Positions 8,022-53,691 of a stretch of 64,000 nucleotides of DNA are shown here, in pieces; positions within the stretch are counted from its first letter, which is position 1; each line of letters opens with the position of its first letter. The notes under the pieces were generated by a model. The model did no database searches. It had not been told where the DNA came from and worked only from the letters and a program-made list of their open reading frames with translations. The translations under genes were made by a program, and so were the position numbers. Location of the stretch: IMG/VR virus record IMGVR_UViG_2541047319_000002; one strand, written 5' to 3'. This DNA comes from an uncultured virus (IMG/VR IMGVR_UViG_2541047319_000002) (taxonomy: Duplodnaviria > Heunggongvirae > Uroviricota > Caudoviricetes).

Positions 8022-8050
8022 AAATGACAATAAAATCGTAGTTTTAATTT

Positions 8051-8088
8051 AAATAACCTCATTATTTTGAGGTTATTTTTTTTATTTT
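8051..8088 (+). terminator. Intrinsic terminator
   Basis: AAATAACCTCA-ttattt-TGAGGTTATTT followed by a T-run. Confidence 0.75.
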
Positions 8089-8141
8089 CTATTTAAAACG
8101 GAGAAGGTAAATGTTATAATATATATATAATTAAAAAAAGG

Positions 8142-9080
8142 ATGTTTGAATTTATGAATTATAATTTAAAAAATGAAAATGTATTATCAGAGCTATTACA
8201 AAATGAGGATGAAAAAACAAGGATTGGTATACTCAAAGTTTATAAAGTGTTAATATTTTGGTTTGCTAAAGAAGGAAAGCTTGTTGAGGAAGAAAATGAC
8301 TATATTGTTGAGATAGTAGGTAATGATAAAGAAGAAATTGTGAGAGATATGAGCCAGAATAAAACATACAATGCCATAATGGCTATAATTTTTAAAATTA
8401 ATAAGATATTTAAAACTTTAAATTACGATATTCACTTTTCTAAACCAAAAAATTTAGTCGCTGAATTTGATTTATCAAAATATCTAAGACAAGATGAAGT
8501 ACTTCAGGTATGTAGTAAGCTAACTAATGCACAAGATAAGTTTATAATTTATGCAGCTTTTTGTGGTCTTATTGGTAAAGATGCTGAAGACCTAAGGGGT
8601 ATAAAAATAAAAGACATAGATTTAGAAAAAAGGTTAATAAAGTTAAAGGATACAGAATTTAAGCTGGACAAGTTCTTATTTGATTTTACAAAAGATACAT
8701 TAGAACAAAAAGAGTATAAACAATATTTGGAGCAAGACAGCAATGCTGCTGAGTTTTATCTATTTAATTCTAATTCTGAATATTTAATTAAAACTAAACC
8801 AGATGCTAGATATGGAAATGGATTAAAAGAGATGGGATACTCAACAATTCGCAAAAGATTACTTATTATTAATGATTATTTAGATAATAAAGTACAGTTG
8901 AATTTCACTAATTTAAAAATTTCTGGTATTATGCATCAAATGCATCTAAATGAAAAAAAATATACTCAATCTGGATATTGGACTAATAAAAGCTTGAAAG
9001 AGTTTAAGGAGGATAACAATTTAAACTTCAAAATACAAGAAGTTCTATCTATTTATAAGCAAAAATATATTAAGGAGTAA
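8142..9080 (+). CDS. Tyrosine-recombinase-fold protein, probably a catalytically inactive MrpR/YopR-like phage repressor
   Basis: NAQDKFIIYAAFCGLIGKDAEDLRGIKIKDID resembles integrase box I as in SPbeta YopR; the box I Arg and HxxR are absent (TNLKISG). Confidence 0.6.
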   Translation: MFEFMNYNLKNENVLSELLQNEDEKTRIGILKVYKVLIFWFAKEGKLVEEENDYIVEIVGNDKEEIVRDMSQNKTYNAIMAIIFKINKIFKTLNYDIHFSKPKNLVAEFDLSKYLRQDEVLQVCSKLTNAQDKFIIYAAFCGLIGKDAEDLRGIKIKDIDLEKRLIKLKDTEFKLDKFLFDFTKDTLEQKEYKQYLEQDSNAAEFYLFNSNSEYLIKTKPDARYGNGLKEMGYSTIRKRLLIINDYLDNKVQLNFTNLKISGIMHQMHLNEKKYTQSGYWTNKSLKEFKEDNNLNFKIQEVLSIYKQKYIKE

Positions 9081-9084
9081 CCTT

Positions 9085-10653
9085 ATGAGTAAAGATGTTA
9101 AAGAAAACATAAGTAATGAACAAAAAGATTTAAATAAAATAAATTTAATCTATCATATTATATATGACAATGATAGATTTAAAATGATAACAAGAAAATA
9201 TTTTGAAATTTTTAGATTAAAGGGTATGTCTGCTGAAGAAATAAGTTTAAAATTTGAAGAATTTCTATATTCTCTTATTTCAGATAAGTTTAAAAAGATA
9301 AATACAGTAAATGATGTTAAAAAATTAAGAAATCAAGAGAACTCATCATCATTAAAACTTAAGAAGAGATGGTCTGATATGACTTTAGATTCTCTAAGTG
9401 AAGATACTAAATCTTCAAGAAAAAAAAGCAGTAAATACCTAAAAAAAGAATTAGAAATTGTTGAAAGTGAATATTTAAAAAATGGAAGAATCATTAGTGC
9501 TGGAGTAAAAAATCCAAAAGAATTAAAGGAGCAAAGAAAAGATTTTTTAGATGAGTGGAAGTCAAGCTCTAGTTATAACATATGTGATTACCCATATTTA
9601 CAAGAGTTAAGTACTAGCAAAATAAATTCCGCATTTATACATGATATACTAATGTGTATAACAGAAGTACTAAAAGATGATTATGATTTTGATATTAATA
9701 AAATTGCAATCAAAACTCCACCACATATTTCACCTGGAATTTTTTTACCTTTCACAAAAGGTAAAAGATACTCGCACTTGAATGTTAAAAAAAATGAAAA
9801 TGAATACATGTCAGACGACTATAGTGCTAAGAATCTTTCAGGTAAACAAATGAATTTTTTCTATAAGTTTTCAATTGGGCAAGATGAAAATATTGAAAAT
9901 CTTAAACTAGAGCTAATAAATCCTGATACAGAAAAAAGGGCTTTGCCAAAAATATATTTAGATAAACAAGACCTTGAAATTATTAGATTTGTTTATACTT
10001 ATAGCCACATGAACTCTTTTTCATTTTATTTAGGCGATTTAGTAAAGTACTTAGGACTTTCAGATGGAAAAAAGAACTATATTAATATCAAAAATAGACT
10101 CTTAAAATTACCTTATTATACTTTTTATTCGAATCAAACTAATGATAAAGGCGAATTAAAGTATGAGATTAGTTTTAATTTGTTTTCTAGTACAACAATA
10201 GTAAATGATGAAAACAATAATAATAGAGAGTTGGTTAAAATCACAAAATCTTTTATTGAAGAAGTCGAAAGAGTTAATACAGATATAATGTATAGAAATG
10301 AACTTGAAAAATTACAATTAACACAGTCAATTAATCTAGCTTATTTCTTAGAGGGTAGAAGGTCTTTTCTTATATCTTGTGGTGAGGATATAAAAAATAA
10401 AAGTTTTAGATATGACATAGAAGATTTAAAATTTGATGTTCATCTTAATAAAAGTAAAACAGTAAAGCAAAATATGGAGTATTTAGAACTAGGTTTTAAT
10501 GAGATAAAAGAAAATCAATTTATAATTAAAGACTATAAAAGAGGAAATTCTTATTTTGATGTTTATTTCTATGAAGATTTTGAAAAAAGAAAACGTCTTA
10601 TAAATAATACTATACTTTCTTTACCTGACTACATGATAGAAAATAAATCTTAA
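9085..10653 (+). CDS. Putative plasmid replication initiator protein
   Basis: Winged-helix Rep-like segments (LDKQDLEIIRFV...LVKYLGLSDGKKNYINIKNRLLKL); iterons start immediately after the stop. Confidence 0.6.
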   Translation: MSKDVKENISNEQKDLNKINLIYHIIYDNDRFKMITRKYFEIFRLKGMSAEEISLKFEEFLYSLISDKFKKINTVNDVKKLRNQENSSSLKLKKRWSDMTLDSLSEDTKSSRKKSSKYLKKELEIVESEYLKNGRIISAGVKNPKELKEQRKDFLDEWKSSSSYNICDYPYLQELSTSKINSAFIHDILMCITEVLKDDYDFDINKIAIKTPPHISPGIFLPFTKGKRYSHLNVKKNENEYMSDDYSAKNLSGKQMNFFYKFSIGQDENIENLKLELINPDTEKRALPKIYLDKQDLEIIRFVYTYSHMNSFSFYLGDLVKYLGLSDGKKNYINIKNRLLKLPYYTFYSNQTNDKGELKYEISFNLFSSTTIVNDENNNNRELVKITKSFIEEVERVNTDIMYRNELEKLQLTQSINLAYFLEGRRSFLISCGEDIKNKSFRYDIEDLKFDVHLNKSKTVKQNMEYLELGFNEIKENQFIIKDYKRGNSYFDVYFYEDFEKRKRLINNTILSLPDYMIENKS

Positions 10654-11094
10654 AAATGGCCATATATTCTCCGTACTTAACAAAAAATGTCGAATTTATT
10701 TTAAATAAACTTAATAAAAAAAGTAAAATGACCGTATATTCTCCGTACTTAACAAAAAATAGATTTTTCAAAAAAACTAAATGACCGTATATCTTCCGTA
10801 CTTAACAAAAAATAGACCTTTTTTTAATTATTTCCTTGTCGAAAAATTTTTTTTGTAACATATTTTTTACTTTTCTTAGTAATTTCAAATCTCACGTCTT
10901 CTGAAATCACTATGTCTGAGCTAAATGACCGTATCAGCTCCGTACTTAACAGAAGACGTTGAAACCACTATGTCTGAGCTAAATGACCGTATCAGCTCCG
11001 TACTTAACAAATATAGACATAAATTTATTTTTTAGGTAAGATAAATTTGAGTAAAAGGAATCATCGCCAAAATGGCTATATCAGCTCCGTACTT
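10654..11094 (+). repeat. Iteron array / putative replication origin: six copies of AAATGRCYRTAT-N-CCGTACTT(AACA)
   Basis: Copies at ~10654, 10726, 10779, 10923, 10981, 11070; 10902-10951 and 10960-11009 form a near-exact 50-bp tandem duplication; AT-rich tract ~10815-10890. Confidence 0.85.
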
Positions 11095-11126
11095 CTGAAA
11101 TTATTGATTTTTCAAAGGAGAAAATT

Positions 11127-11393
11127 ATGAGTCTTAAATATAAAGATAAAGAATTTGTACTTGTAGAAAAAAAGAATATAAATGAATTAGATAACTCTAA
11201 TATAAAATATATTGACCTAAAGGACAAGCAGTATTATGTGGTTACACAAGGCAAAAAACCTAAAAGATTTAACCTAGAAGATATTAAAAATATAAAAAAA
11301 GATTTAGATAATGGCATAAGTTTAAGAAAGTGTGCAACAAAATGGAACTGTAGCACTAGGACTATACAGGATATAAAAAATAATATTTATTAA
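11127..11393 (+). CDS. Small HTH DNA-binding protein
   Basis: C-terminal GISLRKCATKWNCSTRTIQDIK HTH. Confidence 0.75.
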   Translation: MSLKYKDKEFVLVEKKNINELDNSNIKYIDLKDKQYYVVTQGKKPKRFNLEDIKNIKKDLDNGISLRKCATKWNCSTRTIQDIKNNIY

Positions 11394-12647: not shown

Positions 12648-13070
12648 TATATGGAGTAGTTCAAAAAAAATGATTTTGGCTACTCCTATTAGTGTTTGTA
12701 TTCAAATTATAAAATACTTAAATAGAGCTATAAAGAGCGTGAAATCTCTATTAGCTCTATTTTTTTATGCCTATTTTAATGAAATTATATACACAATAGA
12801 AAGTTTTTTATACATATTACTAATTTAATTTTACAATAATAATATATATTTATTCAATTTATTAAGAAACTTATTAAAAAAAAATACTAATGCATCAACA
12901 AGATGTTAATATTGAAATTTATATTTTATTTTATTCCTTACAATCACTTCGATTTATAGTTTTTTCTGACTTTCTAATTATTGGTTTTAATTATTACTTT
13001 TAATTTTTGTTTTAAATTCTGAAAAACATTTATTATTTATACTTTAATAAATTAAAAGATAAATAATATC

Positions 13071-13169
13071 GAATATATGTTCTTGAAATATCGAACAAAA
13101 AGAGTTATAATAATAATGTGCTAAAAATAATTGGTATATATCTTGTACACATAACAAGAACATATGTTT
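13071..13169 (+). promoter_or_regulatory. SigA promoter flanked by LexA (Cheo)-like boxes
   Basis: TTGAAA 13083-13088, 17 bp, TATAAT 13106-13111; GAATATATGTTC 13071-13082 and GAACATATGTTT 13158-13169. Confidence 0.6.
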
Positions 13170-13409
13170 GCAAAACGGTTAATTGTTTATATTTCTATCT
13201 ATTTTTTATGTCTTATACTATAAAGTTAAATATAAAATTAAGATAAATATTATTAATAATAAATAGTTTGAAAATTACAAAAATATGTCGATAGCTGGTA
13301 AAAAATGGAAGAACTACTTGGATAGAATGTATGTTACAATGTAATTAATTAAGTGTAAAGGGGAAGTATTTATAATAGGTATACTTTATTTTTCTAAGGG
13401 GGAAAGTTT

Positions 13410-13550
13410 ATGTCAGAAGGAAAAATTAACAAAGAAAAATTAATGAAGCTAGGTAATATGCTGTCAGAATTAAAAAGGAATAATAAAGATAAATTTACAA
13501 ATTATAAATCTGAAGTTGAGAAATATGAAAATAAAAAAAGAGGAGCATAA
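13410..13550 (+). CDS. Small 46-aa protein (not in ORF track), paralog of 14062-14217
   Basis: AAGGGGGA RBS; MSEGKINKEKLMKLGNMLSELKRNNKDKFTNYKSEVEKYENKKRGA. Confidence 0.65.
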   Translation: MSEGKINKEKLMKLGNMLSELKRNNKDKFTNYKSEVEKYENKKRGA

Positions 13551-13560
13551 CATCCTCTTT

Positions 13561-13908
13561 TTACTTCTTATTTTCTTCCTCTAAAAAAACCTCAGCTACA
13601 TTGTATAATCTTTTTTGTGCTTCTGGACTTAATTTACTTATCATTCTTAACATTTCTTTAATATCATCATCAAAATCCATATCTAAAGTTGGGTCTTGAA
13701 ATATATCCCCTTCTCCCGTTCTTAACCAATTTTCGTTTACATTAAATTCTTTGCATATATCATTGATTATTCTATCTGTTAAATCTCTCCTACCTGTTTC
13801 TAGAGAGGAAATGTGGTCTTGAGATAGAAATAATTTATTTCCCATCTGTGTTTGATTCAGCCCTAATTCTTTTCTTAAAGTTTTCAATCTTTTATTCAAT
13901 ATTATCAC
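13561..13908 (-). CDS. XRE-family HTH repressor (likely TTG start at 13899)
   Basis: LKTLRKELGLNQTQMGNKL...ISSLETGRR...FNVNENWLRTGEG. Confidence 0.9.
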   Translation of the reverse strand: MIILNKRLKTLRKELGLNQTQMGNKLFLSQDHISSLETGRRDLTDRIINDICKEFNVNENWLRTGEGDIFQDPTLDMDFDDDIKEMLRMISKLSPEAQKRLYNVAEVFLEEENKK

Positions 13909-13940
13909 CTCCCTCTTTAAAATATATTATCATATAAAAT

Positions 13941-14043
13941 ATGTCTTTGCAATAAAATTGATATAAAATATGTCAAAAACATATTACCTGTTGACAATAT
14001 GCTAATGACATAATATAATTTAAATATGGAATGTCAAAGACAT
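13941..14043. promoter_or_regulatory. Divergent promoter region with four ATGTC-N3-GACAT-like operators
   Basis: Operators at 13941, 13970, 13999, 14031 (perfect); TTGACA 13991, 17 bp, TATAAT 14014. Confidence 0.75.
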
Positions 14044-14061
14044 AAAAAGGAGTGATAATAT

Positions 14062-14217
14062 TTGCATAAAAAAAAGATGAATCAAAAAGAGCTTGAGTTA
14101 TTAGGGAAAATGTTTTTAAAAATTAAAAAAATAGATAAACAAAAATTTGGAGAGTTAAAAGGCTCTGTTAAAACATCGCTTGAATATGAATATATTTTAG
14201 TTAATAAAATTAGATAA
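14062..14217 (+). CDS. Small 51-aa protein divergent from XRE repressor 1 (not in ORF track)
   Basis: AAGGAGTGA RBS, TTG start, consensus promoter; MHKKKMNQKELELLGKMFLKIKKIDKQKFGELKGSV... Confidence 0.7.
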   Translation: MHKKKMNQKELELLGKMFLKIKKIDKQKFGELKGSVKTSLEYEYILVNKIR

Positions 14218-14339
14218 GTATACATACGTACATTGAAAACTGAATATTCACACAAATAAAAAGTGCAACCATAAATTAACAAATTTTATAATTGCACTTC
14301 TTCATTTATTTAAAACATGGATATACTTAGTTTCTTTTT

Positions 14340-14370
14340 TATAAAAGAGTAGCTTAGCTACTCTTTTATA
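14340..14370. terminator. Bidirectional terminator
   Basis: TATAAAAGAGTAGC-tta-GCTACTCTTTTATA perfect hairpin between convergent genes. Confidence 0.8.
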
Positions 14371-14372
14371 AA

Positions 14373-14705
14373 TTATTTTTTAGAATTCAGTAACTTATTT
14401 TGAGTTTTAAGCAACTCTTTTGCCATTAATAAAAGGTATTCTTTTGTATCAGAAGTTAAAGAGTCAAAAATGTTAAGAAATTCTTTTTCGTATGGAGAGG
14501 AAGCAAACATATCTCCCTCTCCTGTTCTTAACCAATTTTCACTGACACCAAATTCAGAACAAATTAATTTTATATGTTTGTCACTGAAAGTTCTTTTATT
14601 AACTTCTATCATTGCTAATGTTGATTGACTTAAGCCTATCTTTTTTGCAAATTCTGCTTGATTAAGTTTCAATTTTTCTCTGATTTGTTTTACTCTAGTA
14701 TACAC
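14373..14705 (-). CDS. XRE-family HTH repressor, paralog of 13561-13908
   Basis: RVKQIREKLKLNQAEFAKKIGLSQSTLAMIE...FGVSENWLRTGEG; GTG start after GAAAGGGG RBS. Confidence 0.9.
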   Translation of the reverse strand: MYTRVKQIREKLKLNQAEFAKKIGLSQSTLAMIEVNKRTFSDKHIKLICSEFGVSENWLRTGEGDMFASSPYEKEFLNIFDSLTSDTKEYLLLMAKELLKTQNKLLNSKK

Positions 14706-14720
14706 ATGTTTGCCCCTTTC

Positions 14721-14854
14721 ACTTATTTTGTAATTAAATAATATCACAATAATATTACAAATGCAATTAAAATATAAAAAATAATATTACAAATAAAATA
14801 TAAAAGTATTGACTTTAACTTAATTTGTAATTATAATTAAATTACAAATGAAGT
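14721..14854. promoter_or_regulatory. Divergent promoter region with five ATTACAAAT-type operators
   Basis: Sites at 14721(-), 14754, 14786, 14818(-), 14841; TTGACT 14809, 17 bp, TATAAT 14832. Confidence 0.7.
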
Positions 14855-14868
14855 TGAGAGGTGATGTA

Positions 14869-15012
14869 ATGGAAGATATAATCACAACTGAAATGAAGAA
14901 TACATTTTTAAATTTATCAGTAAATAATCAATTAGAAATTCTTAATCTTGCTAAGACTATTAAAAAAATAGAAGATGCTTTAAATATTGAAGACAATGAG
15001 AATTATAATTAA
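14869..15012 (+). CDS. Small 47-aa protein resembling the C-terminal domain of the adjacent XRE repressor (not in ORF track)
   Basis: GAGGTGA RBS; MEDIITTEMKNTFLNLSVNNQLEILNLAKTIKKIEDALNIEDNENYN. Confidence 0.7.
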   Translation: MEDIITTEMKNTFLNLSVNNQLEILNLAKTIKKIEDALNIEDNENYN

Positions 15013-15042
15013 AAAATGAAATGATTAAGGAGAGGATTTGAA

Positions 15043-15837
15043 TTGAATAATTTAAGAATCAAGGGAAAACAAAAATTTATAGATTTAGAAATTCCTATTA
15101 TAGAAGGAGGATTTGGAGAAAGTAAAAAATGTATGACAGACAAAACTATATCTGAAATACATAATATGAGAAATGCTGATATAAGAAGGAGAATATCTGA
15201 TAATTTAAAAAGGTTTAAAAATAATATTGATTATATAGATTTGAAACGTGTGCATGAGACGCACACGTTGATAGAATTAGGTTATTCCAAGCAATCTATA
15301 ACTCAAGCTGATAATATATTTTTATTATCTGAAAGAGGTTACTCAAAACTAATTAAGATAATGGATACTGATTTAGCTTGGGAAATACACGATAAAATAA
15401 TGGATGAATATTTCAATATGAGAGAACAGCTTACAGATAGTTATATGATTCAAGATTCTATTGAAAGAGCTAAAAGATGGATAGAAGAAGAAAAAGAAAG
15501 ATTATTACTTAAAGAAACAATTCAAGTTCAACAACCTAAAGTAGAATATCATGATAAAGTATTAAATCCTGACAAATTAGTTACGACAACAGATATTGCG
15601 AAAGATTTAGGAATGACAGCACAAGCATTAAATAAATTACTACATTTAAACAGAATTATATATCCAGAAAGAATAAATGGGCGAATAAAATGTTGGAAAC
15701 CATATAAAAATTATTTATGGTTGATACCTGAATATGCAGATTTTAAAATAACAGAACATGATACGCAGCTTAAATGGACTGAGATAGGTAGAAAATGGTT
15801 AATAGAATTTGTAGAGAACATTAAAAAAATAAGTTAA
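15043..15837 (+). CDS. Phage antirepressor (ORF6N-like N-terminus + KilAC/ANT C-terminus)
   Basis: IFLLSERGYSKLIKIMDTDLAW; QPKVEYHDKVL...TTTDIAKDLGMTAQALNKLL. Confidence 0.85.
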   Translation: MNNLRIKGKQKFIDLEIPIIEGGFGESKKCMTDKTISEIHNMRNADIRRRISDNLKRFKNNIDYIDLKRVHETHTLIELGYSKQSITQADNIFLLSERGYSKLIKIMDTDLAWEIHDKIMDEYFNMREQLTDSYMIQDSIERAKRWIEEEKERLLLKETIQVQQPKVEYHDKVLNPDKLVTTTDIAKDLGMTAQALNKLLHLNRIIYPERINGRIKCWKPYKNYLWLIPEYADFKITEHDTQLKWTEIGRKWLIEFVENIKKIS

Positions 15838-17524: not shown

Positions 17525-17562
17525 TTAAAATCAAGATTTTAATAGAAAAGGAGTGATTAAAA

Positions 17563-20888: not shown

Positions 20889-20942
20889 GTTAAAACAAAT
20901 GTTTTAATGTGATTTTACCTAGTAGGTACAAGGAGGTTTTTA

Positions 20943-21344
20943 ATGAAAGAGCTTTTAGAAGTAAAAAAAATATTTGATAGTTTAGCATCTACATCTAGTA
21001 GAAAAGAAAAAGAGAGAATATTAGAAAAATATAAAAATAAGAGAATGTTTGTTGAATGTTTACAATTTCTGCTAGATTCAAATATTCTCACTGGAATATC
21101 TAAGAATAAAATATGTAAGAATCTAAATAATACTAGTCATAATGAATTAGAGAACATATATGATATGCTTGACTATTTAATTAAGAATAATACTGGCAGA
21201 AATATAGATGTAAAAACAATACAAGTATTTGCCAGTAAAGATGAAAAATTAAAAGATTTTATTTTTAACTTAGCTACAAAATCAATTAAATTAGGAATAA
21301 CATATAAGACTGTAGACAAAATAATGCCAGGTTTAATTATCTAA
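20943..21344 (+). pseudogene. N-terminal DNA-binding domain of an ATP-dependent DNA ligase, truncated before the catalytic domain
   Basis: LASTSSRKEKERIL...TGIS...NNTGR...IKLGITYKTVDKIMPGLI then stop; no KxDG adenylation motif follows. Confidence 0.65.
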
Positions 21345-21364
21345 TAAATTTTGTGTTTTTTACA

Positions 21365-21425
21365 AAAAACTATTGAGAACATAGAGGTTATATGATATAA
21401 TAAAAATATATTGAGAACAGAGAAG
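21365..21425 (+). promoter_or_regulatory. Strong SigA promoter with duplicated GAGAACA(T/G)AGA boxes
   Basis: TTGAGA 21373, 17 bp, TGnTATAAT 21396; near-identical promoter at 39955-40018. Confidence 0.75.
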
Positions 21426-21446
21426 TTAAAAAGGGGGGGCAATGAG

Positions 21447-21950
21447 ATGACTGACAAAATAATAATAGCAAGTGTAGATGGAGAGGAAATGATATTTAGA
21501 ACTGAAATGAAAAAGTTAGAAAAAGGAGATAGTCTTATAGTTTCTGTAAATGGTGTAAAAAGATTAGCTCTATTCATTAGGTATATAAGTACTTGTGAAG
21601 AATATATAGAAGATATAGCATTTCAAAAAGTAGATGATATATTATATGAAAACACAATTGCCAAAGAAAAAGAAAGAGTTAAAAAGGTATTTAAAGATAA
21701 GTGTATGAAAAATTATAAACCTATTGTTAATACAGAAATAGACTCTTATTTGAGGGAATGTGGTTTCAATTGTGATGGTAGACAATTTTTCAAAAGTATA
21801 GACAATACACAAATTTTAATTAGCAGGGATTGTGATAAAGATGTTTTGACTGTATCGAAAGGTTTGACAATAACTAAAACAGATATAACAAATAAAAATT
21901 TAATTACAGTTATTAAAATAATAAATAATAGTCTATTAATAGTTAGGTAA
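21447..21950 (+). CDS. Hypothetical protein
   Basis: GGGGGG RBS before in-frame ATG. Confidence 0.65.
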   Translation: MTDKIIIASVDGEEMIFRTEMKKLEKGDSLIVSVNGVKRLALFIRYISTCEEYIEDIAFQKVDDILYENTIAKEKERVKKVFKDKCMKNYKPIVNTEIDSYLRECGFNCDGRQFFKSIDNTQILISRDCDKDVLTVSKGLTITKTDITNKNLITVIKIINNSLLIVR

Positions 21951-24235: not shown

Positions 24236-24725
24236 AGACTATATTTATATTTTAGATATAAAACATGACACAATTGTTGATGGAGAAGGGTTTAGAACAT
24301 CTATTTATTGTTCTGGATGTAATCATATGTGTAGAGGCTGCCACAATCCTCAATCTTGGGATATAAAAAATGGAACTTTAACTAAAGTATTAGATATTTA
24401 TAAGGAAATCATTTCAAATAAATTTTCAGATGTAACATTTTCAGGAGGAGACCCACTTCTACAACTGCAAGGATTTGTTCATTTAGCTAAATTAATTAAA
24501 AAGAATACAAACAAAACAATATGGTGTTATACAGGTTTTAAGTTTGAGGAACTCATAACAGACAATGAAAAGCTAGAATTGTTAAAATTAATAGATGTTC
24601 TTGTGGATGGAAAATTTGAAGAAGATAAAAAATCTTTAGAGTTGATTTTTAAAGGTTCGTCAAATCAAAGGATAATTGATGTTCAAAAAACATTATATGA
24701 AAAACAAATAGTATTATATGAATAA
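24228..24725 (+). CDS. nrdG: Class III RNR activating radical-SAM enzyme
   Basis: DGEGFR, CNHMCRGCHNP, SGGDP, GSSNQR. Confidence 0.97.
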   Translation: MDKDYIYILDIKHDTIVDGEGFRTSIYCSGCNHMCRGCHNPQSWDIKNGTLTKVLDIYKEIISNKFSDVTFSGGDPLLQLQGFVHLAKLIKKNTNKTIWCYTGFKFEELITDNEKLELLKLIDVLVDGKFEEDKKSLELIFKGSSNQRIIDVQKTLYEKQIVLYE

Positions 24726-24925
24726 GAGAGGCTTAGCCCTCTCTTTGGAGGTAAGTGTTATGACCAAAGAAGAATTTATTACTAAATTTCTTAAAGAACA
24801 GCAGAGAAGAATAAAGGTTTTATATTATGAAGTTGAAAATTTCAAGATGGATAGAAGGTTTAATGAGAGGAAAAAGTCTAGGAGACATTAAAATGTTTCT
24901 TTTAATATAAGGAGGAAGTAGCTAT

Positions 24926-25333
24926 ATGTATTTTGAAACGGACATTATAAAAAATAAGAATACTGTAAATAAAATAATAAAATATTGTGGTGGAAATACT
25001 GAAAAATTGAAAGATTGGCTAAAAGAAATAGAAAATAAAAGTATCAGTAGTTTAGAAGAATTAAAAGAATATCCATTAAAAAGAAATTATAAATTTGTAT
25101 TTTCCAAAGAAGAAGCTCCTAATTTAGATAAGCTTATAAAAATGAAACTAAGAGATAATTGTTTAGAAAAATGTGAGATTTGTAGTTTAGAAAATCTCTT
25201 AAGTATGCTAAATGATGAGATTTTAGATTTAAATAAAGAAGATATCTCTTATGAAGATAATATTGAATGGATTGAAAATTGTAAAGAAGAACTAATTAAA
25301 TTAAAGGTAGGAAGTATTTGCATAGATTGGTAG
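24926..25333 (+). CDS. Hypothetical protein
   Basis: AAGGAGG RBS. Confidence 0.7.
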   Translation: MYFETDIIKNKNTVNKIIKYCGGNTEKLKDWLKEIENKSISSLEELKEYPLKRNYKFVFSKEEAPNLDKLIKMKLRDNCLEKCEICSLENLLSMLNDEILDLNKEDISYEDNIEWIENCKEELIKLKVGSICIDW

Positions 25334-25345
25334 AAAAATAAAGGA

Positions 25346-25882: not shown

Positions 25883-25902
25883 ATATAATAAGGAGAGAAA
25901 CC

Positions 25903-35893: not shown

Positions 35894-35947
35894 AATCATG
35901 GTTTTAAATGATTATAAAATGTCAGTTTTAAAGGGGGCTAATCATAT

Positions 35948-36193
35948 ATGGATATTAAGATAGATATGTGTTTATTAGAGATGGAAATAAATAGAAGAAG
36001 ATGTGAGTATGCTGCCAGAACAGGAAGATATCCTAATTCTCTTATTTTGTGGGAAGGTTACTATAGCCTTCTTAATATCCAATATATAGAGGATAAAACA
36101 AGAGGATATATTACTAAATTTAATGACATGGATGTTATAAAATGTAATGACTTTTTAAAAATAGAATTATTTGAAAAGAATATTAATAATTAA
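35948..36193 (+). CDS. Hypothetical protein bounded by junction palindromes
   Basis: Sites at 35914 and 36190. Confidence 0.6.
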   Translation: MDIKIDMCLLEMEINRRRCEYAARTGRYPNSLILWEGYYSLLNIQYIEDKTRGYITKFNDMDVIKCNDFLKIELFEKNINN

Positions 36194-36221
36194 AATTTGT
36201 TTTTTAAGTTGAGGTGATGAG

Positions 36222-39200: not shown

Positions 39201-39292
39201 AAGCTAAAAGTAAAAAAGTAGATGGAAAATGGATTAGGAGCAATACAGAAACAGAATGGTGGATACAAGAATATTGGAAAATAGAAAATTAA
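36222..39292 (+). pseudogene. dnaE: DNA polymerase III alpha subunit (DnaE/SPbeta YorL-like), split by a 1-nt frameshift at ~37171
   Basis: PHP motifs HSH, TEHG, ANDSHY in 36222-37184; GRGSA, LPDIDLN, YQE, YSFNASH in 37196-39292; one extra base gives RYEFDIIEKTHMEDYF. Confidence 0.9.
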
Positions 39293-39647: not shown

Positions 39648-39967
39648 TGAGTGTAAATAAAATTTATGAGAAAAAAGAATACATTATTATCAAATCAAAA
39701 TCTGGATATATAGTTTATAATACAAATAAAGAGTTTAAAGAAGGCCACACTCACTTAAAAAGTTATAATGCTGCTAAAACAGCTATAGATTTAGTTATTA
39801 AGAGAAGGCTTCCTAAAAGTTATTCTATTTATTTTCTTACAAGTTTGATGAGAATATCTAATGATGTACAATATATAAAACATATAAGCGATATTGTATA
39901 TATAAGAAATAATAAAGGACTAAAAGAAAAATATATAAATTCTAAAAATATTAAAAAAAACTATTGA
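39647..39967 (+). CDS. Hypothetical phage protein
   Basis: GYIVYNTNKEFKEGHTHL; translationally coupled. Confidence 0.7.
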   Translation: MSVNKIYEKKEYIIIKSKSGYIVYNTNKEFKEGHTHLKSYNAAKTAIDLVIKRRLPKSYSIYFLTSLMRISNDVQYIKHISDIVYIRNNKGLKEKYINSKNIKKNY

Positions 39968-40018
39968 GAACATAGAAGGTATATGATATACTATGAATAT
40001 AACAAGAACATAGAAGGT
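39955..40018 (+). promoter_or_regulatory. SigA promoter with duplicated AGAACATAGAAGG boxes
   Basis: TTGAGA 39964, 17 bp, TGnTATACT 39987; matches promoter at 21365. Confidence 0.75.
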
Positions 40019-40041
40019 AAAAAGGAGGTAGTGATTAATAT

Positions 40042-41163
40042 TTGAAATCTTATAAAGAAAAACAGTTTTTAGTATTTGAATTTGAAGATGGGAAGAATGT
40101 AAAGTATAATTTGGCAACAGGAGAATACGTTGGTAAATCTGGAAGGATTGTAAAAGATGTGTGTACTCAACTTAGAGGATATAATTTACATGAGGTAATA
40201 AATTCTTTTGAAGATGAAAATTATAAGTGTTTTTTAAATTTTGTAGATGGAAGAGTAAATAGAAGTAAGAGTAGCAGAGCTTGGGGAAGGAGGGTTGAAA
40301 GAATAAGAAATATAGGAAGTTTTTTAAATGAAATAAATAATTATTCTGAGTATGAACAATTATTCTCAGCAGGATTAAAAAAAATAATTTATCCGATACA
40401 TTGTGATATTAAGAGTATACCTAAAGGTCTTATTTCTATCTGTAGGAATTATAGTATTACTTTGAGTGACCGATTGATACAAGGGTATAGTAAAAACCCA
40501 AATTTGTATAATAATTTATTAAGTTTAGAATTGAATTCAATAAGAAAAACTAATTTAATTTCAATTCTTGATTCTGGTTATGATAGAATGATATTTGATA
40601 GATTAATAGACATATATAAATATAAACCTCAATCACTTATAAATTATATAGATAATCTGATGACATATGAAGCATTAAATGGGCTTGAAAGCACTCTAAA
40701 CGAATTATATGACTATGTTGTTATGATGAGTGTAATAAGTGATAAATATGAAAAATATCCAAGACATTTCTTAACAACTCATAAAATAGCATCTCGAAAT
40801 TATAATCGTCTTAAAACTCAATTTGAAGAAGAAGTATTTAATAAAAGAATAGACAAGTCACTAGAATATTCATATCAAGATTATAAATTTATATACCCTA
40901 AAAATACAAATGAAATTAAAGATGAAGCAGTACAACAAAATAATTGTGTAAGTAGTTATATTCAAAATGTTATAGATGGAAAATGTCATATATTATTTAT
41001 GAGAAAAAAGGATAATCCAAGTAAAAGTTTAGTAACAATTGAAGTTAGAAATGGCAAAATAGTCCAAGCTAAAGGTAAATATAATAGAGATGTCAATGAA
41101 AGAGAGCAAGAAGCAATTGATAAATATAATAATAGAATAGAAAGGATGAAGAAAATATGTTAA
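40042..41163 (+). CDS. PcfJ-like domain protein
   Basis: C-terminal EAVQQNNCVSSY...ILFMRKKDNPSKSLVTIEV...QAKGKYN. Confidence 0.75.
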   Translation: MKSYKEKQFLVFEFEDGKNVKYNLATGEYVGKSGRIVKDVCTQLRGYNLHEVINSFEDENYKCFLNFVDGRVNRSKSSRAWGRRVERIRNIGSFLNEINNYSEYEQLFSAGLKKIIYPIHCDIKSIPKGLISICRNYSITLSDRLIQGYSKNPNLYNNLLSLELNSIRKTNLISILDSGYDRMIFDRLIDIYKYKPQSLINYIDNLMTYEALNGLESTLNELYDYVVMMSVISDKYEKYPRHFLTTHKIASRNYNRLKTQFEEEVFNKRIDKSLEYSYQDYKFIYPKNTNEIKDEAVQQNNCVSSYIQNVIDGKCHILFMRKKDNPSKSLVTIEVRNGKIVQAKGKYNRDVNEREQEAIDKYNNRIERMKKIC

Positions 41164-41582
41164 TAGAAGGAACTAAAATAAGATTAATGAAAGAAATACA
41201 AGGTTTTGAGATGTTAAAAATAGGAGATATATTTATTATTACATCTGTGGGAAATAATGGAACTATACATTTTAAAACAGATTATGGAATAGGTTTTATG
41301 AACTATAGTGAATTTGAAGCATATTTTGAAATTGTTCAACAAAAGAAAAAATATGAATGGGGTGCATGGTCTATAAGAGGAGATTTCTCTGGAGCATATC
41401 TATATAGAACAAATGGGAAAAAAGTAGAAGTTAGAAAAGGAAATTTTAAAGCATCCTCTACTTGCCATGATACAGATGAATTTAATTTAAATAAAGGTAT
41501 TAAGTTATGTCTGGCAAGAATTGAAGTTAAAAAAGCAAAGAAACAAGTAAATTTAGTATTAGATGAAATAAATAATAAATAA
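41157..41582 (+). CDS. Hypothetical phage protein
   Basis: STCHDTDEFNLNKGIKLCLAR. Confidence 0.7.
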   Translation: MLIEGTKIRLMKEIQGFEMLKIGDIFIITSVGNNGTIHFKTDYGIGFMNYSEFEAYFEIVQQKKKYEWGAWSIRGDFSGAYLYRTNGKKVEVRKGNFKASSTCHDTDEFNLNKGIKLCLARIEVKKAKKQVNLVLDEINNK

Positions 41583-41613
41583 ATTTATCATTTTAATATG
41601 ATTGGAGGTCTTT

Positions 41614-43832: not shown

Positions 43833-44390
43833 ATGGAAGTTAAAGAAAAAACAATGAATGATGGTTTCAAGAAAGTGGTAAATGAGGAAATAAAGACGTA
43901 TATATCAAATTTATATTCAGATAGAATAGACGGATTAAAAGAGAGTGATAGTCAAATTGAGATAACAAAAGCATTAATAGCCTTTCATTTAGATATAGAA
44001 TCAATTCCAAAGGATAATACAAACCCATTTTTCAGGTCTAAATATGCAAACCTTGATACAATTCTTAAAGCAGTAAATCCATTATTAGCAAAACATGATT
44101 TAATACTAATGCAATCAGCAGAAGATGCAGGTAATGATAAAGTATATATAAAAACTAAACTAAAGCATTCATCAGGCGAATACATAGAGTCAAATTCTGC
44201 ACCATTTAAACCAGCTAAAACTAATGATATACAAGCTAGAGGAGCATTGGAAACTTATTTGAGAAGATATGCAGTTCAATCAGTATTAGCATTATCATTC
44301 GAGGAAGACGATGATGGAAATTCTTTAACAAACAAATCAAAGGGTAAATCAGAGGAAGAAAATTCAACTATTAAGAAAAGTAGAGTGTAA
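43833..44390 (+). CDS. ERF-family ssDNA annealing protein
   Basis: NPFFRSKYANL, HSSGE, TYLRRY, EDDDGN. Confidence 0.9.
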   Translation: MEVKEKTMNDGFKKVVNEEIKTYISNLYSDRIDGLKESDSQIEITKALIAFHLDIESIPKDNTNPFFRSKYANLDTILKAVNPLLAKHDLILMQSAEDAGNDKVYIKTKLKHSSGEYIESNSAPFKPAKTNDIQARGALETYLRRYAVQSVLALSFEEDDDGNSLTNKSKGKSEEENSTIKKSRV

Positions 44391-47640: not shown

Positions 47641-47757
47641 AAAAGTAAAGAAATTAATTTTATGAGAAAATTTTTATTGTTTAGGGATTTATTAGCAGAT
47701 GCTAAATAAAATATGTGTTTTAATATGAGTCAGAATAACAAATAGAGGAGAGATAAG

Positions 47758-49365: not shown

Positions 49366-49809
49366 GTGGACAAAATAAATAAGATAGATTTGATTAAGTT
49401 AAAAGAAATGAACATATATGATAATTATCAATTAAAAAAAATAGCAAGTAAAATGATATTACATCTAAGATATGAAATAATGGATTTTTGTGGTTGTGGT
49501 TCTCCTGATGATATATCTTTTATGATAAAAGGAGTATTGACTTCCATACAAAATAAAGAAAAAAATTGTAATTTAGAATACACAGAAAGATGTTACATAT
49601 TTGAAATAGAATTTAATAATGTTTGTGGAATAATTGGTAGTAAAAATGATTTGATACAAGAATTTATATTAAATGCTTTAAATTCATATGGGTTATTAGA
49701 ACATGGTAGTAGCATTTGGGGGTCATGGCTATCTGATTATGGTAAACAAATATTATGTGCTTTTGAAATAGTTGGTGACTGTATTTTAGATGTTAGCTAT
49801 TTAGATTAA
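49366..49809 (+). CDS. Hypothetical phage protein
   Basis: CGCGSPD...LEHGSSIWGSWL. Confidence 0.7.
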   Translation: MDKINKIDLIKLKEMNIYDNYQLKKIASKMILHLRYEIMDFCGCGSPDDISFMIKGVLTSIQNKEKNCNLEYTERCYIFEIEFNNVCGIIGSKNDLIQEFILNALNSYGLLEHGSSIWGSWLSDYGKQILCAFEIVGDCILDVSYLD

Positions 49810-49836
49810 AAAGTTAGTTTTAATAGGAGGTGTTCT

Positions 49837-51149: not shown

Positions 51150-51956
51150 ATGGAAAAGGAACTATACAGCTTTAGTAAATTAAATGCATTTCACACATGT
51201 CCATTTCAGTACTATCTTACATATGTAAAAAATTTAAATCGAGAACAAAATTGTTATGGTTATTATGGCAATGAATTACATAGTTTACTAGAACAATTAC
51301 AACAAAGAAAAATAACAAATCAAGAAGCTATTCAAAAATACAATGAAGTTATAGAATATGCAAATCTAATGGATTACAACTTTCCTACACCAAATTCAAG
51401 AATTAATTATTTAGAATGTATATTACATTATATAGAAAATTTTGTACCAATTGAATGTGATAGATACTATATAGAAGAATATTTTGAGTTTGATATTAAT
51501 GGAATTACAATGAGGGGATACATAGATTTATATTATATAATAGGTAATAAAATTTATGTTATAGATTACAAATCAAGTAGTAAATTTTCTAAAAAAGACC
51601 TACCTAAAAAATCAATGCAACTTATCTTATATGCAATGTATCTTAAAGAAAAATATCCAGATAAATCAATTAAATATGTAGCTTTCGATATGTGCAAGTA
51701 TATGAAGAATGAAAAAGGGGTGTTAGTTGAAAGAAATAAGATTGATAATATAAACAATTATGAAAGAGCTATAGTAAAAATTAAATATACTAAAGAACTA
51801 GAGAAACAATTAATTGATTTTGTTGTTGATACAGTTACTCAAATAAAACAGTTAGATTCCAACGATGAGAGCGTTTGGTGCAAAAGTGATGACAAAAGTA
51901 ATCAGTTTTTTTGTAAAACTCTATGTTCTCATTACAGGGTAAATTGTAAGATATGA
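51150..51956 (+). CDS. PD-(D/E)XK (RecB/Cas4-like) nuclease
   Basis: YSFSKL...CP, GNELH, GYIDL, IDYKS, QLILYA, C-terminal Cys cluster. Confidence 0.9.
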   Translation: MEKELYSFSKLNAFHTCPFQYYLTYVKNLNREQNCYGYYGNELHSLLEQLQQRKITNQEAIQKYNEVIEYANLMDYNFPTPNSRINYLECILHYIENFVPIECDRYYIEEYFEFDINGITMRGYIDLYYIIGNKIYVIDYKSSSKFSKKDLPKKSMQLILYAMYLKEKYPDKSIKYVAFDMCKYMKNEKGVLVERNKIDNINNYERAIVKIKYTKELEKQLIDFVVDTVTQIKQLDSNDESVWCKSDDKSNQFFCKTLCSHYRVNCKI

Positions 51957-51994
51957 GTCAGTTCTAATTTAAAAAGTTTATAAGAGGTGATAAC

Positions 51995-52804
51995 TTGCTT
52001 AAAACAACCAGATATGAGTTATACAATGATGAATGTTTAAAAATAATGGATACATTAATTGAAAAAAATGTAAAAGTAGATGCAATAATTGCTGATATAC
52101 CACAGGGGATAACTAAAAATAATTGGGATAAACCTTTAGCATTTAATGCTATGTGGGATAGATTATATAAATTAAGAAGGAATAAAAATACTCCAATTAT
52201 ACTATTTACCAATCAACCATTTACATCTAAATTAATATGCAGTAATGATAAGCACTTCAAAATAATGAAATATTGGGAAAAAGACAGACCAAGTGGTTTT
52301 TTAAATGCTAAAAGAATGCCTTTAAAAAATGTTGAAGAGATAGCAATATTTTATGAAAAACCACCAGTATATAACCCACAAATGATAGTTGGAAAGCCTA
52401 GTCACAGTATAGGTAAGGTTAATGGAGAAAGTAAATGTAAAAACAATAACAATTATGGCAATTTTGCAAGAGTTGAGAGAGAAGGGAACTTAAAATATCC
52501 TAAACAAATCCTAAAATATTCTAGACCTCACCCACCAATACATCCAACCGAAAAACCTGTACCACTTTTAAAAGATTTAATAATGACATATTCAAATGAG
52601 GGAGATGTAATTTTAGATTTTACTGCTGGTGTAATTTCAACAGGAGTAGCAGCATTAGAAACAAATAGAAGGTTTATTGGAATAGAATTAAACGAAGAAA
52701 GTTTTAATAAGGGGGTAAAAAGGATGAGAAATACAGAAAGTTTAATAATGAAAGGTTGCAAACATAAGGAAAACAAGAGTTTTAGAAAATCAAAATCACA
52801 ATAA
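51995..52804 (+). CDS. Beta-class N4-C/N6-A DNA methyltransferase with degenerate motifs
   Basis: DAIIADIPQG (vs DPPYG), HPTEKP, LDFTAGVISTG (vs GSGST). Confidence 0.75.
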   Translation: MLKTTRYELYNDECLKIMDTLIEKNVKVDAIIADIPQGITKNNWDKPLAFNAMWDRLYKLRRNKNTPIILFTNQPFTSKLICSNDKHFKIMKYWEKDRPSGFLNAKRMPLKNVEEIAIFYEKPPVYNPQMIVGKPSHSIGKVNGESKCKNNNNYGNFARVEREGNLKYPKQILKYSRPHPPIHPTEKPVPLLKDLIMTYSNEGDVILDFTAGVISTGVAALETNRRFIGIELNEESFNKGVKRMRNTESLIMKGCKHKENKSFRKSKSQ

Positions 52805-52808
52805 AATT

Positions 52809-53691
52809 TGAATTTTAATAAGATTGGAGAGTGATGAGTATTAAATTTCAACCTGTAATAAAATGGAGTGGAAGTAAAAGAAGTCAATCTGAAGAAATAG
52901 TAAACAAATTTCCTGATATAATTGACACCTATTATGAACCATTTATAGGTGGAGGAAGTGTGATGTTTCAATTATTAAATAGCAATAAAAAAGTAAAAAG
53001 ATATATATGTAGTGATATAAATGAGGATTTAATTTCTTTATGGAACGCAATTAAATCAGATACCGAATCATTATGCTTAAAATATGAAAAGCTGTGGAAT
53101 GAATTAAATAAAGATGAAGATATAGAAAGAAAGAAAAAGTATTATTATTCAATAAGAAATAGTTATAATAGTACAAGAAAACCAGAATTATTCTTATTTT
53201 TAAGTAGAACATGTGTAAATGGGCTAATTAGATATAACTCCAAAAATGAATTTAATACATCTCTTCATTTTTCTAGGAATGGTATAAATCCAAAAAAATT
53301 AAAAGAAATAATATATCAATGGTCAAAGATTTTAAATGATAAAAACGTTGTATTTTTAAAACAAAGTTACGAAAAAGTATATCCTAAAAGTAATGATTTT
53401 ATATATTTAGACCCACCCTATGCAAATACAAAAGGAATGTATCAAGGAACTATAGATTATGAGTATTTTTGGGATTGGATTAGAACTTTAGAATGTAAAT
53501 TAGCGTTGAGTTTTGATGGAAAGCTTGGAAATAAAGATAAAACATATGATGTACCAAAAGATATATATAAAATTCATAATTATCTTTATAGTGGAATAAG
53601 TGTTTTTAAAAAAATAAAACAAAAACAGGAGCCTGTGTATGAAAGTTTATATCTAAATTATTGATATGAATTTTAATAAGATTGGAGAGTG
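52809..53691. repeat. 25-bp exact direct repeat flanking the Dam-type methyltransferase gene
   Basis: TGAATTTTAATAAGATTGGAGAGTG at 52809-52833 and 53667-53691. Confidence 0.9.
52831..53664 (+). CDS. Dam/D12-class DNA adenine methyltransferase
   Basis: KWSGSK, YYEPFIGGGSV, SDIN, YLDPPY. Confidence 0.92.
   Translation: MMSIKFQPVIKWSGSKRSQSEEIVNKFPDIIDTYYEPFIGGGSVMFQLLNSNKKVKRYICSDINEDLISLWNAIKSDTESLCLKYEKLWNELNKDEDIERKKKYYYSIRNSYNSTRKPELFLFLSRTCVNGLIRYNSKNEFNTSLHFSRNGINPKKLKEIIYQWSKILNDKNVVFLKQSYEKVYPKSNDFIYLDPPYANTKGMYQGTIDYEYFWDWIRTLECKLALSFDGKLGNKDKTYDVPKDIYKIHNYLYSGISVFKKIKQKQEPVYESLYLNY

Follow-up and report, generated by a model that had tools for sequence, protein, structure and literature searches.

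A strictly spaced TAAAA-N6-TTTTA dyad at gene junctions of SPbeta-related phages, probably bound by a paired phage protein, marks gene-swap points and is not an integron

The 64,000-nt stretch analyzed here (the window), taken from the uncultured virus record IMGVR_UViG_2541047319_000002, is the reverse complement of approximately 57–125 kb of phiCD211-type phages and displays 97–99% identity to phiCD211 and phiCDIF1296T. It corresponds to the non-structural arm of these phages, with replication, nucleotide-metabolism and RNA-repair genes and many small genes without an assigned function; our own rough gene calls gave 97 genes, which make the window 85% coding. The element under study is a short inverted repeat, WTAAAA-N6-TTTTAW (W, A or T), which an initial annotation of the window had noticed at gene junctions and interpreted as the mark of an integron-like system capturing single-gene cassettes. 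The window was compared by BLAST with five relatives (phiCD211, AR1086-1, LIBA6276, ES-S-0107-01 and pCD1602_4). The exact copies of the repeat, hereafter the dyad, and one decayed copy are the following.

215–232, plus strand: exact dyad TTAAAA-ttatat-TTTTAA; identical spacer in five of the five relatives.
8030–8047, plus strand: exact dyad ATAAAA-tcgtag-TTTTAA, 9 nt past the stop of gene 7449–8021; a terminator-like hairpin follows directly and the gene of an MrpR-like protein lies ~95 nt downstream.
17525–17542, plus strand: exact dyad; the homology to AR1086-1 and LIBA6276 begins at its first base.
20890–20907, plus strand: exact dyad; AR1086-1 has a 4.4-kb insert here between two copies (spacers caatag and caaatg).
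24888–24905, plus strand: exact dyad; the TAA of the left arm is the stop of the upstream gene.
26314–26331, plus strand: exact match; the spacer is the Shine-Dalgarno (SD) sequence AGGAGG and the right arm overlaps the ATG.
29386–29403, plus strand: exact dyad, immediately past a TAA stop.
30316–30333, plus strand: exact match in the 5' part of open reading frame (ORF) 30288–30569; lost by one arm change in phiCD211 and LIBA6276.
30581–30598, plus strand: exact dyad upstream of rtcB; the homology to ES-S-0107-01 and pCD1602_4 begins at its first base and that to LIBA6276 stops at its last base.
32304–32321, plus strand: exact dyad, spacer tcttaa; four left flanks and three downstream genes among the relatives.
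32574–32591, plus strand: exact dyad, the sole copy with right arm TTTTAT.
33021–33038, plus strand: exact dyad, spacer tgatac; both flanks changed in ES-S-0107-01 and pCD1602_4.
33776–33793, plus strand: exact dyad, spacer taaata with a stop codon; tied to its left flank in pCD1602_4 and to its right flank in LIBA6276.
34854–34871, plus strand: exact dyad; downstream gene swapped in AR1086-1, LIBA6276 and ES-S-0107-01.
35890–35931, plus strand: tandem dyads 6 nt apart (35890–35907 and 35914–35931), both exact; a small gene lies between the copies in ES-S-0107-01 (171 bp) and in pCD1602_4, and LIBA6276 joins the left flank of the 35890 copy to the spacer of the 35914 copy.
36190–36207, plus strand: exact dyad upstream of dnaE.
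41581–41598, plus strand: decayed copy with one arm change; a breakpoint hot spot, with nine ends of high-scoring segment pairs from five relatives.
47706–47723, plus strand: exact dyad; the homology to phiCD211 and AR1086-1 stops 5 nt beyond it.
49806–49823, plus strand: exact dyad, spacer agttag; both flanks changed in LIBA6276 and ES-S-0107-01.
52801–52818, plus strand: exact dyad upstream of a dam-type methyltransferase gene.

In total, the window holds 20 exact copies of WTAAAA-N6-TTTTAW, 19 of them within 8030–53676 and one at 215. The initial annotation had counted 17; its observation of exact copies with a fixed spacing stands, and the ten copies it had listed individually all exist, with the correction that the spacer at 49806 is AGTTAG and not GTTAGT. 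It had also suggested a scan against a shuffled background: 100 dinucleotide-preserving shuffles contained 1.53 copies on average and six at most, with none of the 100 reaching 20, so that the observation is stronger than had been stated (20 copies vs about 1.5 expected). When the spacing was varied from N0 to N20, N6 gave 20 copies and every other spacing 0–4. Since N6 is the only enriched spacing, the fixed distance of six bases is real and not an effect of A/T-richness. The spacers themselves are distinct in all 20 dyads, as had been noted for the smaller set. At the 20890 site, the orthologous copy of phiCD211 (contig L003, around 10694) carries the centre in inverted form (caaatg vs catttg) between unchanged flanks, for which two substitutions or a flip between the arms are possible.

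The core of the element, TAAAA-N6-TTTTA, is a strict 16-base palindrome with 10 invariant bases and an exact spacing. Beyond 5 bp per arm and one W position, no extended arm conservation was seen in any lineage. Oriented along the genes, 19 of the 20 exact window dyads have TTTTAA as the arm nearer the gene, while the distal arm opens with A in ten copies and with T in the other ten; the asymmetry thus tracks gene direction. Copies with one mismatch at N6 are not enriched in the window (42 in total and 13 intergenic, vs 51–87 and 6–46 at other spacings), so the element is all-or-none and the roughly ten near copies of the initial annotation do not hold up as a class. Single near copies may be decayed orthologues; the one at 41582, for example, corresponds to exact copies with a TTATCA spacer in phiCD211, AR1086-1 and LIBA6276.

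The placement of the dyads relative to genes is equally consistent. The centres of 19 of the 20 exact copies lie outside the gene calls, in spite of the 85% coding density, which answers the comparison of intergenic and coding positions that had been proposed along with the shuffling. The earlier statement that every copy sits at a junction therefore holds except for the 30316 copy within ORF 30288–30569, probably a chance match; the 26314 copy is possibly a chance product of ribosome-binding-site (RBS) composition. As observed previously, the upstream stop is often the TAA of the left arm, and this is the case at seven exact copies (24888, 32304, 34854, 35890, 36190, 49806 and 52801). The stop codon is inside the spacer at 33776 and immediately 5' of the arm at 17525, 29386 and 33021. 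On the other side, the next start follows the right arm after 12–16 nt at 10 of the 17 motif junctions, and an SD is found 0–6 nt past the arm at most window sites. The genes around the dyads are short units of RBS plus ORF in co-directional arrays, and promoter-like repeats occur internally, within the motif-bearing arm.

The dyad is not confined to the window. In phiCD211 the spacing scan gave 26 copies at N6, compared with 2–12 at other spacings; of the 25 copies located in its whole genome, 21 are in the non-structural arm, upstream of RBSs, and the four structural-arm copies lie in or on coding sequence. The core was found 34 times in the Bacillus phage SPbeta (0–4 at other spacings), 36 times in Mammaliicoccus phi6255 (1–3), 23 times in Tsamsa (1–5) and 17 times in a Staphylococcus SPbeta-like phage (1–4). 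A pattern scan of viral contigs retrieved two further uncultivated phages without DNA similarity to the window, G002 (127 kb, 34% G+C), with 44 core copies vs 0–3 at other spacings, and G003 (137 kb, complete), with 60 vs 2–10. The terminase, portal, DnaE and primase of G002 and G003 are 25–42% identical to those of phiCD211, and the G002 terminase is 53.6% identical to YonF of SPbeta. Altogether, the core proteins of the motif-bearing phages of Bacillus, Mammaliicoccus/Staphylococcus and Clostridioides are only 25–55% identical.

The core is not enriched in Sundance (0 copies), PMBT24 (0), TR-TP1 (4), Slash (1) or Phass-1 (1), and the seven copies of Lactococcus 949 are marginal. Signals of the host were controlled for with other Clostridioides difficile phages and with the structural arm of phiCD211; four unrelated C. 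difficile phages (188.7 kb) contained 11 copies vs 10 for the reversed control, and thus no enrichment. Since the dyad is enriched in distant relatives but not in unrelated C. difficile phages, it is a family trait rather than a host trait, carried by a deep lineage of SPbeta-related siphoviruses, and is not one of the general signals of the host. The Enterocloster phage PMBT24 (contigs L172–L176) contains 10 copies of TAAAA-N5-TTTTA (0–5 at other spacings) and is possibly a lineage with shifted spacing.

The surroundings of the dyad differ between lineages. The commonest arrangement in phiCD211, G002 and G003 has the SD core beginning 2 nt past the motif. In SPbeta the dyads come right after the stop (often as TGA-A-TAAAA or TAG-A-TAAAA) with the SD 10–30 nt further on, and at aimR and yorE a terminator hairpin comes first, followed by the dyad, SPBRE (the operator of the SPbeta repressor MrpR) and the promoter. 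Five copies of G002 abut -35-like hexamers of a repeated promoter. The common denominator across lineages is the boundary of an expression unit and not the RBS as such. G003 (contigs L046–L052; for example at L049:14182 and L050:4918) has a second palindrome, TTGAAATTTCAA, in 15 copies, of which 12 adjoin a junction dyad; seven are located exactly 24 nt downstream of the dyad, between dyad and SD, in a composite cassette.

In order to distinguish DNA from RNA recognition, the arms were inspected for signs of base pairing. Among 5-mer dyads at N6 spacing in four genomes only TAAAA is enriched, with no compensatory pairs and no one-sided G-U-type variants. RNA folds of six sites compared with shuffles gave z values from -1.34 to +0.81, with an arm–arm hairpin predicted in about half of them, and an Rfam search returned no family match. 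The lack of compensatory or G-U arm variants, together with the insignificant RNA folding, favours a dimeric protein on double-stranded DNA, and we favour the view that both arms would be read on the duplex by such a two-fold symmetric protein. The centres of the two half-sites are separated by 11 bp, a spacing shared with many dimeric operators. In seven orthologous site pairs from the two most divergent relatives, the arms differ at 0 of 70 positions and the flanks at 43 of 420; the arms are under purifying selection. The spacers differ at 2 of 42 positions, a figure drawn from few divergent pairs.

Known DNA-binding functions of the family were considered as readers of the site. MrpR (YopR) of SPbeta has a tyrosine-recombinase fold, has lost the catalytic residues and acts as a repressor binding the palindromic SPBRE (PMC10516654). 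The dyad is not SPBRE, a 15-bp operator: the element that we derived from seven MrpR-bound SPbeta promoter regions is about CAAATACAAAWAATATGTATA, with the core TACA-N7-TGTA, and differs from TAAAA-N6-TTTTA. MrpR was rejected as the dyad binder for SPbeta only, where the peaks from chromatin affinity purification followed by sequencing (ChAP-seq) are at SPBRE only (PMC10516654). A promoter function was rejected as well, as the arms fit -35 and -10 hexamers poorly and are 6 bp apart rather than 17. Likewise, YonO transcribes the SPbeta late genes from one promoter (PMC5467207), and since a single late promoter is used the dyad is not the YonO promoter.

We then compared the dyads with the mosaic structure of the genomes. 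Positions 1–56,400 of the window contain 184 homology breakpoints relative to the five relatives, 147 of them at gene junctions, and in many cases the edge of homology is on the first or last base of the motif. Among the 113 exact copies of the six genomes there are 40 different spacers. An identical 18-mer with its spacer is kept at a syntenic junction while its left flank, its right flank or both have changed (spacers TAAATA, TGTCAG, TCTTAA, TGATAC and AGTTAG). Taking an ungapped 30-nt identity below 60% as a changed flank, both flanks are changed at 12 of the 17 motif junctions vs 15 of 48 others (Fisher p=0.009). In a second lineage, SPbeta was compared with two laboratory phi3Ts–SPbeta hybrids: of the 18 edges that bound tracts of perfect identity, 6 have a copy within 7 nt, and 4 of the 7 edges at called junctions are at motif junctions compared with a baseline of 25/206 (binomial p=0.006), in a comparison that lacks the phi3Ts parent and pools laboratory junctions with natural identity edges. 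Homology edges thus fall on the motif in two lineages.

Gain and loss of genes are also seen at the sites. Inserts bracketed by two copies where a relative has a single copy occur at 20890 (4.4 kb, AR1086-1) and at 35890/35914 (the 171-bp gene), and the variable neighbours of 32304 are a further example. The dam gene (52834–53661) is part of a unit at 52809–53691, plus strand, that is delimited by 25-nt direct repeats (52809–52833 and 53667–53691) and is missing from LIBA6276, AR1086-1 and ES-S-0107-01; the repeat runs from the spacer across the right arm into the SD region. Yet only about 5 of the approximately 40 distinct simple indels among the six genomes have motif arms at their ends, the remainder ending in SD sequences, 20–39-nt repeats at gene 5' ends or 5–7-nt microhomology (rough counts, from a repeat finder restricted to exact runs). 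In our reading, the sites are preferred but not exclusive module boundaries and crossover is not confined to the 6-bp centre. Of the earlier proposal that these are recombination sites for single-gene modules, the coincidence with boundaries of exchanged genes and the bracketing of some inserts stand, and an integron-like, integrase-driven system does not. Similarly, the alignment of phiCD211-like relatives that had been suggested as a check places edges on the motif, but motif-less junctions break as often.

With enrichment, strict spacing, selection on the arms, conservation throughout the family, restriction to one arm and coincidence with mosaic edges observed, the explanation that we favour, at a probability of roughly 45%, is the docking of a dimeric phage protein that influences expression where one unit meets the next. 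TAAAA-N6-TTTTA would then be a conserved cis-element of the SPbeta-related large siphoviruses, a dyad on double-stranded DNA at which a putative phage-encoded dimeric protein docks. The site would mark the boundary of a unit in the early/replication arm, on or just past a stop and ahead of the SD or promoter that comes next. Most likely it would serve primarily to control how genes are expressed at their boundaries, as an operator of the roadblock or insulator type that resembles the stoperators of Cluster A phages, the palindromes of Cluster O and the extended start-associated sequences (ESAS) of Cluster K. Operator sites for an element-encoded DNA-binding protein had been the alternative offered by the initial annotation, and this is the better-supported of its two proposals. 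Because every unit carries the same exact arms, the sites could double as portable joints, at which exchange between related phages tends to start or end. Such exchange would probably proceed via the phage's own Erf, nuclease and RuvC functions acting on short shared sequence, and stalling induced by the bound protein possibly contributes. The proteins of the window that matter here are the following.

8142–9080, plus strand: MrpR/YopR-like protein with a tyrosine-recombinase fold; candidate master repressor.
43833–44390, plus strand: Erf-family single-strand annealing protein; possible agent of short-homology exchange.
51150–51956, plus strand: PD-(D/E)XK nuclease; recombination module.
54643–55137, plus strand: RuvC-like resolvase.
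59070–60182, plus strand: classical phage tyrosine integrase with Arm-DNA-bind_4, SAM-like and Phage_integrase domains, outside the motif-bearing arm.

The 8142–9080 protein had been described as recombinase-fold, and it does have a tyrosine-recombinase fold, of the MrpR/YopR family. Its homologues at 89–90% identity carry PF22823 (MrpR_C_cat), phmmer ties it to the YopR orthologues of Tsamsa and Sundance, and it matches phrog_5830, 'integrase', at 1e-16; the protein itself had no match in our local Pfam copy or in a search of solved structures. The 59070 protein is the sole intact integrase of the window.

Several observations weigh against the docking-site explanation. Phyletic profiling of 2,196 ORFs from 12 genomes found no protein family that tracks presence and absence of the motif: YopP-like, YomM-like and YopR-like proteins are also found in Sundance, which has 0 copies, while YopR was not detected in G003, which has 60. 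In SPbeta, ChAP-seq of MrpR gave 10 peaks, all of them SPBRE sites, and not the 34 dyads (PMC10516654). The lysogeny-switch region of the window (12828–15043) contains no junction dyad and uses other operators, so the site is not a stoperator in the strict sense. At least one breakpoint is found at 14 of the 17 motif junctions vs 43 of the 68 motif-less ones (Fisher p=0.16), or vs 35 of 48 when the motif-less junctions have a gap of at least 18 nt (p=0.53). Finally, a purely regulatory site does not on its own account for mosaic edges that fall exactly on the arms.

In a different explanation, the dyads are dedicated crossover joints. Here a protein with a tyrosine-recombinase fold (YopP-like, YomM-like or a relative of MrpR) would synapse two sites and swap strands across the 6-bp centre, with in-register swapping of modules and no internal deletions as the outcome; since each site has its own centre, exchange would be productive only between the same site of two related genomes. 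Inverted arms around a 6-bp centre fit the core-site geometry of tyrosine recombinases, the 20 centres are distinct and yet kept at syntenic positions in spite of changed flanks, homology starts or stops at the outermost base of the motif, the comparison of SPbeta with the hybrids shows an excess of edges at motif junctions, and genes of this fold are among the few families common to all lineages. However, only 5 bp per arm are conserved, without extended arms in any lineage, and the recombinase-fold genes are equally present in motif-less Sundance and in Lactococcus 949. The characterised member, MrpR, is catalytically dead (PMC10516654). Inserts are bracketed by unlike centres (caatag/caaatg; gcttaa/tcttaa), crossovers also occur in the SD region outside the core, as in the 25-nt dam repeat, and about 5 of about 40 indels involve the arms. 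A recombination site would not need to be restricted to one arm of the genome or to keep a constant 2 nt from the SD. We consider dedicated crossover joints unlikely. A more specific form, in which a recombinase-fold protein pairs the same site in two co-infecting relatives, with the centre as an address and everything downstream exchanged, is less probable again. If true, addressed crossovers would reshuffle cassettes in register between phages with gene order intact, which would make them nature's equivalent of cassette exchange between heterospecific lox/FRT sites and an intrinsic driver of phage mosaicism.

It is also rather improbable that the element works as RNA, with UAAAA-N6-UUUUA before the SD as a signal for translation initiation or coupling or as a processing site; variants of this view are a start-associated sequence (SAS)- or ESAS-like element, an A/U-rich enhancer or the target of a translational regulator. 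The modal distance of 2 nt between motif and SD core in phiCD211, G002 and G003 and the asymmetry that follows gene direction speak for it, as does the restriction to the non-structural arm, which recalls SAS/ESAS of Cluster K (PMC3203893). Against it, the hairpin is thermodynamically insignificant, the arms show neither covariation nor G-U tolerance, and a dyad would be meaningless for a dimer on single-stranded RNA. In SPbeta the SD is 10–30 nt away, some copies precede promoters or follow terminators, and the phage's structural genes do without the motif in that same host.

The integron-like system of the initial annotation, in which promoterless one-gene cassettes would be taken up and cut out at the sites by the 59070 integrase or the 8142 protein, is very unlikely. 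Its appeal is that two copies frame some single genes at places where relatives have a single copy, and that the genes are short RBS plus ORF units in co-directional arrays. The 16-bp dyad, however, lacks any attC feature (attI and Pc were not searched for), promoter-like repeats occur inside the motif-bearing arm, and most indels bypass the sites. The 59070 protein, located outside the array, has the arm-binding domain of a standard phage integrase. The 8142 protein is MrpR-like, and in SPbeta such a protein represses via a different motif (PMC10516654); the dyad is moreover kept in SPbeta, which integrates by a serine recombinase (PMC8270828). Last, a by-product of composition, namely a stop codon with a run of A, and U-rich sequence ahead of the SD, at a G+C content of 25%, is practically out of the question and for the family as a whole is already refuted: two copies do look so (26314, whose spacer is the SD, and 30316, in an ORF), but N6 alone is enriched, 5 to 40 times, in seven genomes including genomes of 34% G+C, neither other C. 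difficile phages nor the phage's own structural arm share this enrichment, and the arms are conserved where the flanks diverge.

Several other features of the window were recorded. In the lysogeny-switch region, two divergent Xre-type helix-turn-helix genes are accompanied by their own repeated operators (ATTACAAAT/ATTTGTAAT; ATGTC..GACAT). Promoter-like cassette repeats of two families (GAGAACATAGARG boxes around a TATAAT-like hexamer, and TTGGTACA..TATAAT) are found at 21344–21447 and 39967–40042, and also at 1051–1139 and 2221–2298; they are candidate operators of the MrpR-like protein, the counterpart of SPBRE in this lineage. The 473-nt non-coding stretch at 10653–11127, next to the MrpR-like gene and gene 9085, contains several short direct repeats (GGCCATAT..CTCCGTACTT type) that may be the iterons of a plasmid-like origin. 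The 784-aa protein of 4909–7263 displays Cas3-like HD and C-terminal helicase domains (Pfam, 1e-17 and 2e-4), and the phiCD211 annotation has a CRISPR array nearby. The 682-aa protein of 26633–28681 has no Pfam match (phrog_1735); it is present in pCD1602_4 and missing from phiCD211 and AR1086-1, where transposase genes sit. The dnaE gene (PolIII alpha, 36222–39292) is split into 36222–37184 and 37196–39292, while it is one gene of 3,072 nt in phiCD211. An RNA-library contig (run X4) has one extra A after 37170, which points to either a frameshift in a homopolymer or an error in the window's sequencing. Of the runs X1, X4, X14 and X20, compared with 24001–38000, only contigs of X4 gave RNA coverage; the two raw-read runs lack the phage, their few reads fitting short parts only, and no starts or ends at the sites were obtained. 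The ends of RNA-library contigs near some dyads were not taken as evidence.

Dispersed intergenic repeats without an assigned function are known from a few phage clusters, and the dyad is unusually strict and old. It is not described for SPbeta or the phiCD211 group in the available text of the SPbeta review (PMC8270828), of the MrpR paper (PMC10516654), which covers SPBRE only, or of the papers on the phiCD211 group, a scope that excludes the 1999 SPbeta genome paper, Garneau et al. 2018 and the supplements. The question is which protein reads the site, and whether it serves gene-by-gene expression, recombination joints or both; with 34 copies in SPbeta, a genetically tractable model phage, Bacillus subtilis offers a direct test. 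Gene-boundary mosaicism in a large phage family would gain a mechanistic basis if exchange is indeed guided by the sites.

Among known systems, integrons are the most remote. An attC site is an imperfect palindrome of 57–141 bp with R''-L''/L'-R' boxes and extrahelical bases, and the element here is a 16-bp dyad with 5-bp arms and no conservation outside; an integron-type integrase was not found either, judged by the domains of the 59070 protein and its location beyond the array. The core sites dif, lox and FRT, with inverted arms around a 6–8-bp centre, are closer in layout to the 5-6-5 dyad. Recombinase-recognised arms in core sites of tyrosine recombinases measure about 9–13 bp, and lox or FRT sites with different centres do not recombine together, which would give in-register exchange. 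While dif, lox and FRT have arms of 11–13 bp and a known catalytic recombinase, the dyad has 5 bp per arm, plus one W position, and no linked recombinase.

Closer parallels are found within phages. SPBRE belongs to the same phage family and is likewise a repeated palindromic intergenic element, bound by a regulator of tyrosine-recombinase fold (PMC10516654); an MrpR-family protein is also encoded in the window, at 8142–9080. In SPbeta itself the two elements differ in sequence and in number, with about 10 SPBRE copies at promoters vs 34 dyads (PMC10516654). The stoperators of Cluster A are dozens of dispersed repressor-type sites in short gaps of long operons (PMC9283540, PMC4351075), thought to stop elongation and thereby silence the prophage (PMC9283540). 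Unlike the dyad, they lack symmetry, point in the direction of transcription, bind an immunity repressor as a monomer and have the sequence of the early-promoter operator (PMC9283540, PMC4351075), whereas the site described here is a dyad and does not repeat the sequence of the switch operator. The T4-type promoter early stem-loop elements (PeSLs) are short elements between non-essential early genes in plastic regions (PMC2839356), and recombination between their copies explains indels and replacements among relatives (PMC2839356, PMC4122927), as exchange at the dyads does for some units here. Mini-circles have been shown for PeSLs, which combine a strong sigma-70 promoter with a terminator stem-loop (PMC2839356), unlike the dyad with neither a promoter nor a stable hairpin.

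The SAS and ESAS of Cluster K are likewise present in the non-structural half only, just upstream of starts and sometimes with the upstream stop; ESAS is an inverted repeat whose variants argue against RNA pairing, next to diverse gene families and with no assigned function, as here (PMC3203893). This location applies to the dyads of the window but not to those of SPbeta, with the SD 10–30 nt away. In addition, SAS is asymmetric and contains the SD, and the arms of ESAS are 17 bp long, imperfect and 4–13 bp apart (PMC3203893), while the dyad has exact 5-bp arms, always 6 bp apart, and is tied in SPbeta to the stop rather than the start. The 17-bp palindrome of Cluster O (TGTTCGG-N3-CCGAACA) has more than 30 invariant dyads per genome around a variable centre, mostly intergenic and denser in one arm, with no meaningful orientation and no assigned function, and one Cluster O gene lies between direct repeats where relatives have a single repeat (PMC4351075), comparable to the dam unit here. 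It differs in its 7-3-7 architecture from the 5-6-5 dyad, about one third of its copies are inside genes, and it is confined to one cluster of close relatives (PMC4351075), whereas the motif described here spans phages of Bacillus, Staphylococcaceae and Clostridioides. The dyad thus joins the known dispersed intergenic repeats of phages, but it is stricter and far more widely conserved.

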